Shown here in pieces: positions 27,770-32,905 of a DNA stretch of 59,077 bases. The first letter of the stretch is position 1. Each line of letters begins with the position of its first letter. Origin of the DNA: Candidatus Hadarchaeum sp. (GTDB lineage: Archaea > Hadarchaeota > Hadarchaeia > Hadarchaeales > Hadarchaeaceae); contig NZ_JBMFOX010000004.1 in NCBI RefSeq assembly GCF_049969415.1, positions 1-59,077 of the forward strand, in the 5' to 3' direction. A program made the position numbers and the translations under genes. The notes under the pieces are model-generated. The model was not told the origin of the DNA and searched no databases. It was given only the letters and a program-made list of their open reading frames with translations.

Positions 27770-28210
27770 ATGACCATTCGCCGGGGGAAAAAGGTGAGAA
27801 AACAGCGGGGACGGCGCACCTACGGCAGGGGCTGCTCCAAGCGAGGAAGGGGTAGCGGAGAGCGCGGCGGTACCGGGATGAGCGGTGGGCACAAGCACAA
27901 GTGGTCATACATCATTAGGTATATGCCGGACTACTTCGGCAAACATGGTTTCACGCGGCCGGATGATGTCCGTCGCGGTTTGACGGTTATAAACGTTGGT
28001 GAAATCGACGAGAATTTAGAGAAGTTTGTTAAAATGGGCGTGGCCAGGCAGGCGGGGGAGAAGTTCGTTGTTGATTTGAATAAGCTTGGGGTTGACAGAG
28101 TCCTGGGCGGCGGTCGGGTTACCCACCAGCTTGAAGTCACGGCGAAATCGTTTGTGGATTCGGCCAAGCGTAAGCTAGAGGAAGCGGGTGGCAGGGCTAT
28201 CGCTGGGTGA
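27770..28210 (+). CDS. rpl15: 50S ribosomal protein L15
   Basis: RG.RTYG.G, RG.G.RGG.G, FGKHGF, KLEEAGG. Confidence 0.95.
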   Translation: MTIRRGKKVRKQRGRRTYGRGCSKRGRGSGERGGTGMSGGHKHKWSYIIRYMPDYFGKHGFTRPDDVRRGLTVINVGEIDENLEKFVKMGVARQAGEKFVVDLNKLGVDRVLGGGRVTHQLEVTAKSFVDSAKRKLEEAGGRAIAG

Positions 28211-29685
28211 AGGCGATGGACGGGGAAACTGGGCAGAAGCCGCGCTCGAAACTCTACGTGCTGGATTCGATTGTCCGTCATCTTCCCGAGGTCGCCGTTC
28301 CCAAAAGGAGGGTGCCATTTAAGGAGAGGTTTATCTGGACCGGCATAGCACTGATCGTCTTCTTTTTGATGTCCCAGATCCCCCTCTATGGTATAGCCCA
28401 GCGGGAGCCGTTTGTGGACACTAACGGCAACGGGGCTTTTGATTTCATCGATAGCAACGGTAACGGGGTGATGGATCCCGGTGAAGTCGCCTTGGAGCCT
28501 TTTACGGATCTGAACGGGAACGGGGTTTGGGACGCCGGGGCGCAAAACTTCTTTGGCCAGCTCAGGTATGTTTTGGCAAGCCACGCGGGTAGCTTGATGG
28601 AGCTAGGAATCGGTCCGATTGTTACCGCAGGGATAGTCATGCAGCTTTTAGTGGGCAGCAAGATAGTTGGTCTGGATTTGTCTAAAAGTGATGACCGTGC
28701 CCTCTTTACTGGAGTTCAGAAATTTTTGGCAATAATTATGGCTATATTTGAGGGGGCCATGCTGGTGCTGGCCGGAAATTACGGTAAGAGTGTAGGGTTG
28801 CTGAGCCCGGCGGGAATTTTGCTTGTGATACAGCTCACGCTGGGAGCCATCGTGGTGATTTATCTTGATGAAGTGGTCTCAAAATACGGCTTTGGCAGCG
28901 GGGTTAGCCTGTTTATTGCAGGCGGCGTTGCCATGACCGTGGTCTGGGAGGCCCTAAATCCAGTCACTGGAGTTGTCCCGAATTTGATAGGCACAGCGCT
29001 TGGCAATGGTGATGTCATCGCCGAGTTCTTCAGGCCTCACCTACCTAACATGATGGGACTGATCGCGACGGTGCTCATCTTTTTAATAGTGGTCTATGCC
29101 GAAAGCATGAGGATAGAAATCCCGTTGGCCTATGGCAGGTTTGGTGGGGTCAGGGGACGCTACCCAATAAGGTTCCTCTACACCTCAAATATTCCGGTCA
29201 TCTTGGCCATGACGGTTTTCGCCAACCTGAAGATATTTGCCGCTCTTCTTCATGCGCCTTGGATTTCTTACTACACGGACGCTCCGAACGGTTTAGCTCA
29301 GGTAGCCGCCGATCCTCTTCGCGCCGTCATTTACATATTAATCTTAGTCCTCGCTAGTATGGGATTCGCTTATCTCTGGGTGCACATGACTGGGATGGGA
29401 CCGGGCGATGTGGCCAGACAGCTGGACAAGTCCGGCATGTTGATTCCCGGTTTTCGGCGTGACGTAAGGGTCATGGAATGGGTGCTGAGCCGTTATATCA
29501 TGACCGCAGCGCTGCTCGGTGGTGCCTTCGTCGGATTTCTTTCGGCTGGGGCGGACTTCCTAGGTGCTCTGGGCAGCGGGACCGGTATCCTCTTGACGGT
29601 TGGCATAATGTACAGCCTGTACCAGGAGATAGCCAAAGAGCAGGTCGCGGAGATGTTCCCGGCCGTCAGGAGGTTCTTCGAGTAA
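28207..29685 (+). CDS. secY: Preprotein translocase SecY with a DxNGNG-repeat insertion
   Basis: SLMELGIGPIVTA, GSGVSLFI, YPIRFLYTSNIP, IPGFR, GTGILLTV. Confidence 0.97.
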   Translation: MKAMDGETGQKPRSKLYVLDSIVRHLPEVAVPKRRVPFKERFIWTGIALIVFFLMSQIPLYGIAQREPFVDTNGNGAFDFIDSNGNGVMDPGEVALEPFTDLNGNGVWDAGAQNFFGQLRYVLASHAGSLMELGIGPIVTAGIVMQLLVGSKIVGLDLSKSDDRALFTGVQKFLAIIMAIFEGAMLVLAGNYGKSVGLLSPAGILLVIQLTLGAIVVIYLDEVVSKYGFGSGVSLFIAGGVAMTVVWEALNPVTGVVPNLIGTALGNGDVIAEFFRPHLPNMMGLIATVLIFLIVVYAESMRIEIPLAYGRFGGVRGRYPIRFLYTSNIPVILAMTVFANLKIFAALLHAPWISYYTDAPNGLAQVAADPLRAVIYILILVLASMGFAYLWVHMTGMGPGDVARQLDKSGMLIPGFRRDVRVMEWVLSRYIMTAALLGGAFVGFLSAGADFLGALGSGTGILLTVGIMYSLYQEIAKEQVAEMFPAVRRFFE

Positions 29686-29872: not shown

Positions 29873-30694
29873 ATGCTGAAAAAGATGTCAATCCTGATGC
29901 TGGTCCTAGCGCTGTCGTCCGCGTTAATGCTTTCAGGGCTGGCCCAGGCGCAGGGACAAGGAAGCAGCGGTGATCTTTTCCGCATCATTAATAACCTAGA
30001 TACTTCGGCCGCATCTTTGCGCCGGGGCGATAGTGACTCGGCCAAGAACTACATCGGATTGGCCTTTCAGGACTATATCGCCAATTTCAGTTCAAGCGTT
30101 GCCGAAGTGAACTCTTCCCTCGATGAGCAAATCAAGAATAAATTTGCGGCGGTTTATCAGACGCCAGTAGAGTCAGAGATAATTTCCTTGAGGGCCGATG
30201 TTTCTAAAGCGACCTCGCTGGTGGGGGTATATTTATCGCCCCTTTTTGAATATTCCATCTTTGTGATCCTTGGAATCAGCTTGGCCGTGTCGTTTTTCGT
30301 GACTCTCATAACTAAAAAAATGGTAAACTGGGAACTGGTGAAACAGAACAAGGAGAAGATCGCCGCTTTCCAGAAAGAATACCGTGAGGCGATGAAGAAG
30401 AGGGACATGAAACTGGTGCACAAACTTCAGCTGCAGCAACCCGAGATAAACAAGCTTATGATGCAGAACACCTCGCAGACGATGAAACCGTCGATCATTT
30501 ATATGATCCCGCTTTTTGTCCTGTGGGTTGCGTTGAACCACTTCTTCAAGGGCTGGGTGGTGGCTTGGTTGCCGTTCGTTAGAATAGACCTTCCCTTTAT
30601 TGGCCCGTTGGTTGTCTTCGGGGTGGGCTGGTGGTACTTCATCACTTATCTTGGCTTCTCCCAGATCTTTAGAAAGGTCGTGATAGGTGATTAG
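29873..30694 (+). CDS. DUF106 / EMC3-TMCO1 (Oxa1 superfamily) membrane protein with N-terminal signal peptide and extra domain
   Basis: C-terminal half shows TM, coiled coil, MKP..., WY pattern; conserved position between secY and rpl34e; N-terminal hydrophobic stretch ending AQA. Confidence 0.85.
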   Translation: MLKKMSILMLVLALSSALMLSGLAQAQGQGSSGDLFRIINNLDTSAASLRRGDSDSAKNYIGLAFQDYIANFSSSVAEVNSSLDEQIKNKFAAVYQTPVESEIISLRADVSKATSLVGVYLSPLFEYSIFVILGISLAVSFFVTLITKKMVNWELVKQNKEKIAAFQKEYREAMKKRDMKLVHKLQLQQPEINKLMMQNTSQTMKPSIIYMIPLFVLWVALNHFFKGWVVAWLPFVRIDLPFIGPLVVFGVGWWYFITYLGFSQIFRKVVIGD

Positions 30695-32804: not shown

Positions 32805-32905
32805 GCCGGGGTAGCGTAGCCAGGTAACGCGCGAGCCTGGAGCCGGTGCTGGATAGCTCGTGGTCCTCACGGGCCGCAGGGGTTCAAATCCCCTCCCCGG
32901 CGCCA
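32805..32905 (+). tRNA. tRNA-Ser(GGA) with a 12-nt intron at 37/38 (32843-32854); CCA encoded
   Basis: CGAGC-CTGGAG[CCGGTGCTGGAT]A-GCTCG; long variable arm; T-arm and acceptor stem intact. Confidence 0.92.

Follow-up and report, generated by a model that had tools for sequence, protein, structure and literature searches.

An acidic insert with three calcium-type loops ahead of the plug of SecY in a Candidatus Hadarchaeum relative

Few membrane proteins are as conserved as SecY/Sec61, whose plug loop is short in every solved structure. Here we describe the secY gene of a Candidatus Hadarchaeum relative, located on a 59,077-nucleotide stretch of DNA (assembly GCF_049969415.1, contig NZ_JBMFOX010000004.1, positions 1 to 59,077 of the forward strand; this whole stretch is referred to below as the window). 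The protein encoded by this gene carries an acidic insert of 46 residues, with three loops of calcium type, just ahead of its plug. A first-pass annotation made from the sequence alone had noticed these loops and suggested that they form a Ca2+-binding module that tunes the gate of the channel or recruits a partner to it.

The secY gene and its insert

The gene lies in a classical archaeal operon, with S5, L30 and L15 on its 5' side and a DUF106 insertase, L34e and cytidylate kinase on its 3' side, and it is the single secY of this Candidatus Hadarchaeum relative. Its features are given below, with the open reading frame (ORF), the first transmembrane segment (TM1) and the positions in amino acids (aa); AF2 stands for AlphaFold2, and residues are counted throughout from the GTG at 28207.

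28207..29685, + strand: secY ORF, 492 aa from GTG, uninterrupted
28318..28377, + strand: TM1, aa 38-57, running from the cytoplasm to the outside (AF2 helix 38-57; aligns to TM1 of 3mp7 and 1rhz)
28405..28542, + strand: acidic insert of 46 residues, aa 67-112, without counterpart in solved SecY/Sec61
28417..28452, + strand: loop 1, D71-D82, with D1 N3 N5 G6 F8 D9 D12
28450..28485, + strand: loop 2 (middle unit), D82-E93, with D1 N3 N5 G6 M8 D9 E12
28507..28542, + strand: loop 3, D101-A112, with D1 N3 N5 G6 W8 D9 and a non-acidic position 12
28555..28590, + strand: plug region, aa 117-128, GQLRYVLASHAG, with a short helix at 119-122 (AF2; alignment to plug-deletion structures)

The GTG start overlaps the stop codon of the upstream L15 gene. 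The true start is probably the ATG at 28216 (residue 4) rather than the GTG at 28207, because the N-termini of homologues and the ESM Atlas record (from residue 4) start there.

The product matches the Pfam SecY family (E=2.7e-70; 237.6 bits against a cut-off of 32.2), the NCBIfam equivalog NF006341 (380.4 bits against 300) and TIGR00967 (306.6 bits against 253.6), and in the PDB its sequence matches the SecY of P. furiosus (3mp7, E=1e-112). The AF2 model has a mean predicted local distance difference test score (pLDDT) of 83.3 and a predicted template-modelling score (pTM) of 0.82. It aligns to Sec61/SecY structures with template-modelling scores of 0.78-0.82, normalised to the target (0.80 for 1rhz), and a Foldseek search returned 67 PDB matches at E<=0.001, the best 50 of which are all translocon entries, 49 Sec61/SecY and one Ssh1 (2ww9). 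Family thresholds, a ten-helix channel fold with a plug after TM1 and the operon context all agree that the protein is a member of SecY/Sec61 alpha, as the first-pass annotation had named it.

The insert was defined by alignment to solved archaeal SecYs, which is broken in two at this point: residues 20-66 align to 8-54 of 3mp7 and residues 113-491 to 56-466, while against 1rhz (M. jannaschii) the two parts are 21-68 with 6-53 and 108-490 with 46-433. Residues 67-112 are therefore an insertion. Nothing stands opposite them in chains 3mp7, 1rhz and 1rh5, in keeping with the earlier statement that other archaeal SecY/Sec61 proteins have a short loop here; in the remaining 21 matched PDB chains the best match starts only at residues 108-126, and the Pfam Plug_translocon model is interrupted after profile position 16 of 35. 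The stretch 28402-28545 is in frame and encodes aa 66-113, identical to the peptide quoted in the first-pass annotation, whose in-frame insertion with three D-x-N-G-N-G-x-x-D units (28417-28443, 28450-28476 and 28507-28533) is thereby borne out, with a length of 46 residues.

The position just before the plug, on the outer side, was likewise correctly recognised. The insert ends about 5 residues before the segment equivalent to the M. jannaschii plug, and the M. jannaschii plug-deletion structures 2yxq and 2yxr resume their match at residues 126 and 124; in the plug area itself the AF2 model is less sure, with a mean pLDDT of 59 and 65 in the two 10-residue blocks over aa 111-130. The insert is placed on the outer face because TM1 lies at 38-57, the N-terminal 41 residues are positively charged (10 K+R versus 5 D+E) and the topology of SecY is established, on which the orientation of TM1 rests. 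Hydropathy puts the first membrane segment at aa 42-65.

A scan of the six frames of the window for D.[ND]G[ND]G..[DE] gives three matches, all inside the secY insert. From the composition of the rest of SecY, D.N.NG is expected 6e-4 times per 492 aa, and a chance origin of the three-motif cluster is excluded. Residues 66-113 include 6 D, 3 E and 1 R and have a mean hydropathy of -0.47. The GC content of the insert is 0.583 versus 0.529 for the rest of secY, in a stretch too short to argue for a foreign origin.

In the AF2 model of the whole protein the insert has a pLDDT of 76-87, without helix or strand and with four isolated beta-bridges. The same four bridges appear when a 58-aa piece with the insert is folded alone (AF2, 8 sequences), with a pLDDT of 81-90 over its residues 11-50. 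An ESM Atlas search with SecY residues 64-114 gave no usable named match. At the DNA level only units 1 and 3 are alike (74% over 35 nucleotides, nt), so the array is not a recent duplication, and Tandem Repeats Finder reported no array in 28300-28650. Two further readings of the insert were tried and rejected: it is not a cluster of N-glycosylation sites, since its Asn residues all lie outside N-x-S/T sequons, and a mobile element was not supported, as terminal or target-site repeats flanking the insert were not found. Two minus-strand ORFs overlap the stretch, 27931..28584 (217 aa) and 28386..28661 (91 aa).

Three loops of an unnamed 15-residue repeat

EF-hand-type loops, as described in the part of PMC3123361 drawn on here, have ligands at positions 1, 3, 5, 9 and 12, Gly at position 6 and a hydrophobic residue at position 8. 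Loops 1 and 2 of the insert, which share D82, fit this consensus at all positions, and loop 3 at all but position 12. The earlier proposal of EF-hand- or dockerin-like Ca2+ loops thus stands for the loop pattern (consensus residues at 1, 3, 5, 6, 8 and 9, and an acidic residue 12 in two of the three loops) and falls for family membership, the Pfam models for EF-hand, dockerin and TSP3 all remaining below cut-off. The motif of the insert, in a predicted outer-face loop, is D-x-N-x-N-G; according to the same part of PMC3123361, the fifth residue of the DxDxDG class can, less often, be Asn, and a strict expression misses some real sites.

Conservation was counted over 27 distinct insert-bearing SecYs. 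In loop 1, D1, N3, N5 and D9 are each found in 27/27 and G6 in 26/27, with F, L, W or Y as residue 8, and in loop 3 the counts are D1 27/27, N3 27/27, N5 26/27, G6 24/27, W8 26/27 and D9 25/27. A Glu lies four residues before the unit in 27/27 (unit 1) and 26/27 (unit 3), and the aromatic residue two positions before the unit is likewise conserved, whereas loop positions 2, 4, 7 and 10 vary freely. Loop 2 is present in three-unit forms only (19/27), where N3 is kept in 16, N5 in 15, G6 in 16 and D9 in 15 (Q in the other 4).

The ratio of non-synonymous to synonymous substitution rates (dN/dS, Nei-Gojobori) was computed for the window and seven genome loci, where dS is unsaturated in 8 of the 28 pairs. 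In these 8 pairs the ratio is 0.01-0.08 in the insert and 0.01-0.05 in the rest of secY. Between two of these loci, L001 and L004, the 46 insert codons show 0 non-synonymous and 25 synonymous differences. The insert is under strong purifying selection and is a constrained piece of the protein.

These data bear on a rival explanation, namely that the insert is a tolerated passenger, a repeat grafted or expanded in a permissive outer loop that has no function and is lost at random. Each unit holds the hexanucleotide pair AACGGN-AACGGG, of a kind that slippage can create, by an argument put forward in part of PMC3123361. But a neutral peptide would not keep its ligand positions invariant in 27 sequences while their neighbours vary, nor would it be expected to show so low a dN/dS with synonymous sites saturated. 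We regard a passenger as rather unlikely, even with the evolutionary points in its favour that are given below.

When the 48-aa form of the insert was searched with phmmer (HMMER) against 1.84 billion representatives, 915 proteins matched at E<=1e-3 and 123 at E<=1e-10, with a best E of 6.5e-38 and up to 32 matched stretches per protein. Among the best 150 of the 915 matches, 148 have at least 2 motifs, with a median of 12, a maximum of 78 and a commonest spacing of 15. The consensus of these 150 has D1 (100%), N3 (85%), G4, N5 (80%), G6 (100%), V/I7, D9 (92%) and G11; position 12 is E in 66% and D in 17%, which completes an EF-hand loop, and P-F-x follows. Written as a repeat, the consensus is E-P-F-x-D-x-N-G-N-G-x-W-D-x-G. 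On this evidence the insert units are copies of an unnamed 15-residue tandem repeat that is widespread among large and mostly domain-less proteins, a membership that the first-pass annotation had overlooked.

The match also holds in the other direction. A hidden Markov model (HMM) of the 15 repeat positions, built from 181 non-SecY units only, detects at E<=1e-3 exactly the 21 insert-bearing SecYs among 121, together with a single protein among 120 of the DUF106 family; the 241 shuffled controls give no match. Its match to the SecY of the window (E=3.9e-18) has domains at 67-79 (18.0 bits), 80-92 (18.3 bits) and 97-111 (30.8 bits). The SecY forms with two units are two canonical repeat periods, and the middle unit of Hadarchaeum is a non-canonical addition.

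Most of the family lies outside Pfam: 9 of 15 repeat proteins scanned with Pfam are without any family, NCBIfam gave nothing meaningful for the insert and three repeat proteins, and residues 1-190 of the repeat protein P0132 matched only unnamed clusters in the ESM Atlas (0.79 and 0.77). One member, P0122, consists of SdrD_B domains with D-x-N-G-N-G-x-x-D-P-G-E loops. The same repeat is found in the outer parts of envelope proteins, including an AI-2E transporter, a PilX-like pilin, a TonB-dependent receptor and a Prc peptidase. In the AI-2E family transporter (P0274, 693 aa), about 17 tandem copies split the Pfam match after the first membrane segments, which gives a second example of a polytopic membrane protein with the repeat in one of its loops.

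Distribution and evolution of the insert

The nearest proteins to the SecY of the window are SecYs of Hadarchaeota, a group whose Hadarchaeum metagenome-assembled genomes stem from hot-spring and subsurface sites. The query was aligned with the best 120 clusters in MAFFT; 119 of the sequences cover the N-terminus (P0068 and P0120 are N-terminally truncated fragments), and the insert is present in 21 of these 119 full-length SecY clusters, all from Hadarchaeota. Three units are found in 13 of them (P0001-P0013) and two units in 8 (P0014-17, P0021, P0023, P0027 and P0032), while the remaining 98 have a loop of few residues. One insert-bearing cluster has 19 members on 10 contigs. A separate search with residues 58-128, which detects only proteins sharing 5-residue words with this region, gave 27 proteins at E<=1e-3, among them 12 SecYs, all from Hadarchaeota, and no SecY of another phylum. 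The alignment of orthologues thus defines the insert, and among the sequences covered it is found only in Hadarchaeota, where it turns out to be patchy.

At the genome level, the insert is present at 8 of 10 species-representative loci, seven with three units and one (L010) with two; L006 and L007 have none. Candidatus Hadarchaeum yellowstonense YNP_45 is one of these loci, with 91% identity in the best segment, and three others reach 93%. At L010:4001-5399, tblastn matches SecY residues 2-488, and the in-frame translation ends after 276 aa, possibly through a frameshift or a sequence error; L010 was omitted from the trees. That the peptide of the window results from mis-assembly, a frameshift or a wrong reading frame has a negligible probability and was rejected, as the ORF is uninterrupted, selection acts at the codon level, and the insert recurs in 21/119 protein clusters from several sources and at 8/10 independent genome loci.

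The history of the insert was reconstructed on an IQ-TREE tree of 60 SecYs from which the insert columns had been excluded. Its presence and absence require 9 changes, at least 8 of them forced by well-supported branches. A single origin appears in 0 of 200 bootstrap trees, and the approximately unbiased (AU) test rejects the 28 insert-bearing rows as one clade (difference in log likelihood 480, p=9e-60). Of these rows, 27 fall inside one fully supported clade of 51 rows; since the earliest branches of this clade have two units, it is simplest to assume that two units were gained at its base and lost many times afterwards. The ancestral SecY form therefore looks like a two-unit rather than a three-unit one, a point that the first-pass annotation also missed. 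The one row outside is P0032, which carries a two-unit insert beside the insert-less P0039.

Individual comparisons show how the insert comes and goes. In P0018-P0020 the loop looks as if the three-unit insert seen in their sisters had been cleanly cut out. P0016 has two units and P0030 has none; the two share about 94% identity outside the insert and 97-98% in the flanking segments, and the short loop of P0030 is identical to that of P0026. The difference between P0016 and P0030 is a short-tract replacement and not a deletion. The expectation that the insert would be conserved in close relatives therefore holds for the near-invariant ligand positions of the 27 SecYs that have it and fails for pairs such as this one. 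P0027 (488 aa) matches P0016/P0017 at 89-98% identity over its first ~170 residues, two-unit insert included, but its identity drops to 65-76% over the other ~310, like that of its tree neighbours. This mosaic would result either from recombination between lineages or from a chimeric contig. Taken together, the insert has many times been lost by deletion, replaced or moved through recombination among close relatives, and it is an accessory and not a core part of SecY. Given the close relatives that are without it, the insert is not a required part of the gate, and translocation itself is independent of it.

The patchy distribution with its forced changes, the near-identical pair that differs in the insert, and the apparent clean deletion from a three-unit ancestor are also what a tolerated passenger would produce, and they are the points in its favour referred to above. 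The same observations can be read in another way, in which the insert is an exchangeable surface cassette, the most exposed stretch of an essential membrane protein, under fluctuating selection (e.g., by viruses or by habitat chemistry such as Ca2+ supply), whose alleles are kept and swapped by recombination. The P0027 mosaic, the loop-only replacement between P0016 and P0030, the occurrence of the module in P0032 outside the main clade and the rejection of a single clade by the AU test all fit such exchange, as does the module on a different outer-face protein at L006, described next. However, the sequence of the module is conserved and not hypervariable, and the mosaic is a single sequence on a single contig that may be a chimera of metagenome assembly. 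Exchange of this kind would moreover be compatible with Ca2+ binding and would not replace it. We consider this explanation improbable, to about the same degree as the passenger.

At L006, where SecY is without the insert, the DUF106 insertase encoded two genes 3' of secY (L006:5935-6840, + strand; P0287, 302 aa) bears a two-unit module in its outer N-terminal domain, which is led by a signal peptide (repeat HMM, E=3.9e-15). The module is found in this 1 of 120 DUF106 homologues, and in a six-frame scan of the window and the ten loci (~135 kb, with a slightly different pattern per scan) the motifs occurred nowhere beyond the SecY inserts and the L006 insertase. At the DNA level the L006 module and the SecY inserts give local alignments of 27-87 nt with scores of 17-28, a likeness that we judged, without a shuffled or codon-level control, to be no more than the shared peptide motif forces. 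We likewise judged that there is no sign of recent gene conversion between the two. The module is thus portable among outer-face proteins of the export machinery, which by itself implies no functional link between them.

That related genomes bear the module in one case on SecY and in another on the insertase next to it is also one of the points for a docking module. In this explanation the Ca2+ loops would work in pairs, as in a dockerin, and bind an outer-face partner, for which the YidC-like insertase, the S-layer, a signal peptidase and a glycosyltransferase are candidates. Dockerins consist of paired Ca2+ loops, and the ancestral form of the insert appears to be such a pair. In excerpts from PMC7276530 and PMC9582130, eukaryotic Sec61 is joined by proteins that bind Ca2+, on the luminal face and at other places, including TRAP alpha, the EF-hand of Sec62 and calmodulin. 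Against docking stand the lack of a match to Pfam Dockerin_1 and of predicted helices in the insert, the single module among 120 DUF106 homologues, the lack of a co-varying SecY column (see below) and several SecY/DUF106 pairs, probably from the same contigs, with no module on either protein. We think docking distinctly unlikely.

The insertase gene of the window and a putative ORF found beside it in relatives are as follows.

29873..30694, + strand: EMC3/TMCO1-like (DUF106, YidC-like) insertase gene, Pfam EMC3_TMCO1 E=1e-18, without the module in the window
L004:5424-6047, L005:2837-3460, L006:5343-5927 and L010:5410-5985: putative P-loop kinase-like ORFs

The insertase of the window has signal-peptide-like hydrophobic residues at 1-26 and about 90 residues before its first core membrane segment, an N-terminal stretch that looks like an outer domain. 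The scanned DUF106 insertases of Hadarchaeota (P0288-P0406) are mostly ~270-280 aa long, with a range of 204-302. The putative P-loop kinase-like ORF (192-208 aa) lies between secY and the insertase gene in four relatives and is not found there in the window, L002, L003 and L008. Further downstream, Rfam detected a tRNA of 98 nt at 32805-32902 (+ strand, 50.3 bits) that ARAGORN did not report; it is longer than usual and may hold an archaeal intron.

Possible role and comparison with known systems

Our preferred reading, to which we give a probability of roughly 0.55, is that the insert is a Ca2+-clamped knob on the outer face, tethered to the plug and dispensable for translocation. A short array of the widespread extracytoplasmic 15-residue repeat would have been inserted in the outer loop that joins TM1 to the plug, and each of its units would chelate a single Ca2+ ion of the medium. 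Coordination would come from the side chains of residues 1, 3 and 5, the backbone oxygen of position 7, Asp9 via water and Asp/Glu12, with loop 3 doing without the last. Conserved aromatics (F69, F78/F80, F99 and W108) would pack the loops together, and the acidic peptide would become a compact and rigid knob, sitting over the outer opening of the channel and attached some 5 residues ahead of the plug. Such a knob would lengthen and stiffen the N-terminal tether of the plug and cover part of the outer vestibule. Those lineages that keep the insert conserve it as strictly as the rest of SecY.

Several observations weigh against the Ca2+-clamped knob. Position 12 of loop 3 is V, A, T or R and never acidic in the 27 sequences, the middle unit is degenerate in one subclade (the P0009-P0013/P0011 lineages), and Asn in place of Asp at positions 3 and 5 would lower the charge, so the affinity may be low. 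Sequence change is somewhat faster in the insert than elsewhere in the protein, with a mean pairwise identity of 65% versus 77%. Only two of the five AF2 models of the isolated insert are confident (pLDDT 77, 70, 48, 45 and 42), and a Foldseek search of the isolated model against the PDB gave 0 matches at E<=10.

No known calcium family claims the insert either. The Pfam EF-hand models are below cut-off (EF-hand_6 16.6 versus 25, EF-hand_1 12.4 versus 25.4 and EF-hand_5 10 versus 25.9). Dockerin_1 is unlisted even at E<=10, and without predicted helices the insert is no type I dockerin. Nor is it a thrombospondin type 3 repeat, TSP_3 being unlisted at E<=10 for the insert and for the whole SecY. 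SdrD_B is matched at E=0.48 over profile positions 4-23 of 112 only, short of a full domain. The repeat family has no sequence-matched solved structure (P0132 against PDB sequences, 0 matches at E<=1) and, having no Pfam or NCBIfam model either, its Ca2+ binding is itself only inferred.

Evolution provides two more points. Repeated loss shows that whatever the insert does is unneeded in many close relatives. In 7 contrasts between SecYs with and without the insert, no SecY column co-varies with it, and only generally variable columns differ, in no consistent direction. There is therefore no sign of a fixed docking surface on SecY, and the lack of a co-varying column is also in line with a passenger.

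The ideas of the first-pass annotation on gating and docking are possible but find no support in these data, in which no SecY column co-varies with the insert and many close relatives function without it. The boldest version of the former goes beyond the Ca2+-clamped knob and makes it a built-in latch for extracellular Ca2+: with Ca2+ bound, the knob would hold the plug tether and seal the idle channel, and at low Ca2+ the peptide would unfold and loosen the plug. A portable cassette of this kind, moved by recombination between SecY alleles and even onto the insertase, could let a population tune the outer face of its export machinery to habitat chemistry or viruses. We treat the latch as a long shot; if it is true, this SecY/Sec61 would be the first in which a metal controls gating or ion leak in cis.

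A strictly conserved module of Ca2+-type loops beside the plug is of interest in several ways. Relatives at ~94-98% identity that differ only in the presence of the module are a natural experiment on the plug tether. The insert is also a handle on an uncharacterised repeat family, of which the 2-3-unit SecY version is the smallest and most tractable instance. Should the insert turn out to be no more than a stabilising decoration, it would still serve as a clean clade marker and as a documented example of a short loop cassette that moves by recombination in an essential gene.

Archaeal SecY and eukaryotic Sec61 alpha are among the closest known systems. The protein shares with 1rhz, 3mp7 and mammalian Sec61 its full-length homology and fold, and the order S5-L30-L15-secY is the same; the difference is that its loop 1, which holds the plug between TM1 and TM2 of Sec61/SecY according to an excerpt from PMC9582130, is longer by 46 residues with three Ca2+-type loops. 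An insertion of Ca2+ loops in SecY was not found described among the top-ranked results of our literature search.

The loops themselves resemble the EF-hand/Dx[DN]xDG loops treated in the part of PMC3123361 already cited (e.g., loop I of obelin), with which they share the 12-residue pattern and, by prediction, an extracytoplasmic location. The same source describes relatives in which a short loop without the motif takes the place of a longer loop that has it, as is the case among these SecYs. Of 22 matches of the insert to PDB sequences at E<=10, 19 are EF-hand calcium proteins by name, with the best E of 0.034 below significance; obelin, whose first loop is D-I-N-G-N-G, is among these weak matches, and loop 2 aligns, again below significance, to the EF-hand loops of calcium vector protein and obelin. 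Unlike an EF-hand, the insert has no predicted flanking helices (none between residues 58 and 118, and hence no predicted helix-loop-helix), an Asn at position 5, a loop 3 without the 12-ligand and loops 1 and 2 sharing an Asp.

The B domains of SdrD/SdrG have the same D-x-N-G-N-G loops as the SecY insert. In the portion of PMC6232131 consulted, these domains coordinate three Ca2+ each, which rigidifies the fold and gives it mechanical strength. However, they are all-beta, Ig-like folds of ~110 residues, and the insert matches only the loop part, without the beta-sandwich. The unnamed 15-residue repeat proteins (e.g., P0132, P0149, P0184, P0264 and P0273) have the same period and consensus, with a strong match in both directions; they have a median of 12 and up to 78 motifs, whereas SecY has 2-3 units inside an essential channel. 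The insert is thus best placed outside the EF-hand, dockerin, TSP3 and SdrD_B families, in the unnamed repeat family, where it would work like a calcium loop of the DxDxDG class.

Finally, eukaryotic Sec61 is tied to Ca2+ in trans. Excerpts from PMC9582130 and PMC7276530 name calmodulin at its N-terminus, the EF-hand of Sec62, TRAP alpha and BiP at loop 7, and report that mutations in the loop-1 plug raise the Ca2+ leak of Sec61. These regulators are separate proteins, mostly cytosolic or on other loops, whereas the loops of Hadarchaeum are built into loop 1 of SecY itself, which may thus be the in-cis equivalent, in an archaeon, of these in-trans regulators.

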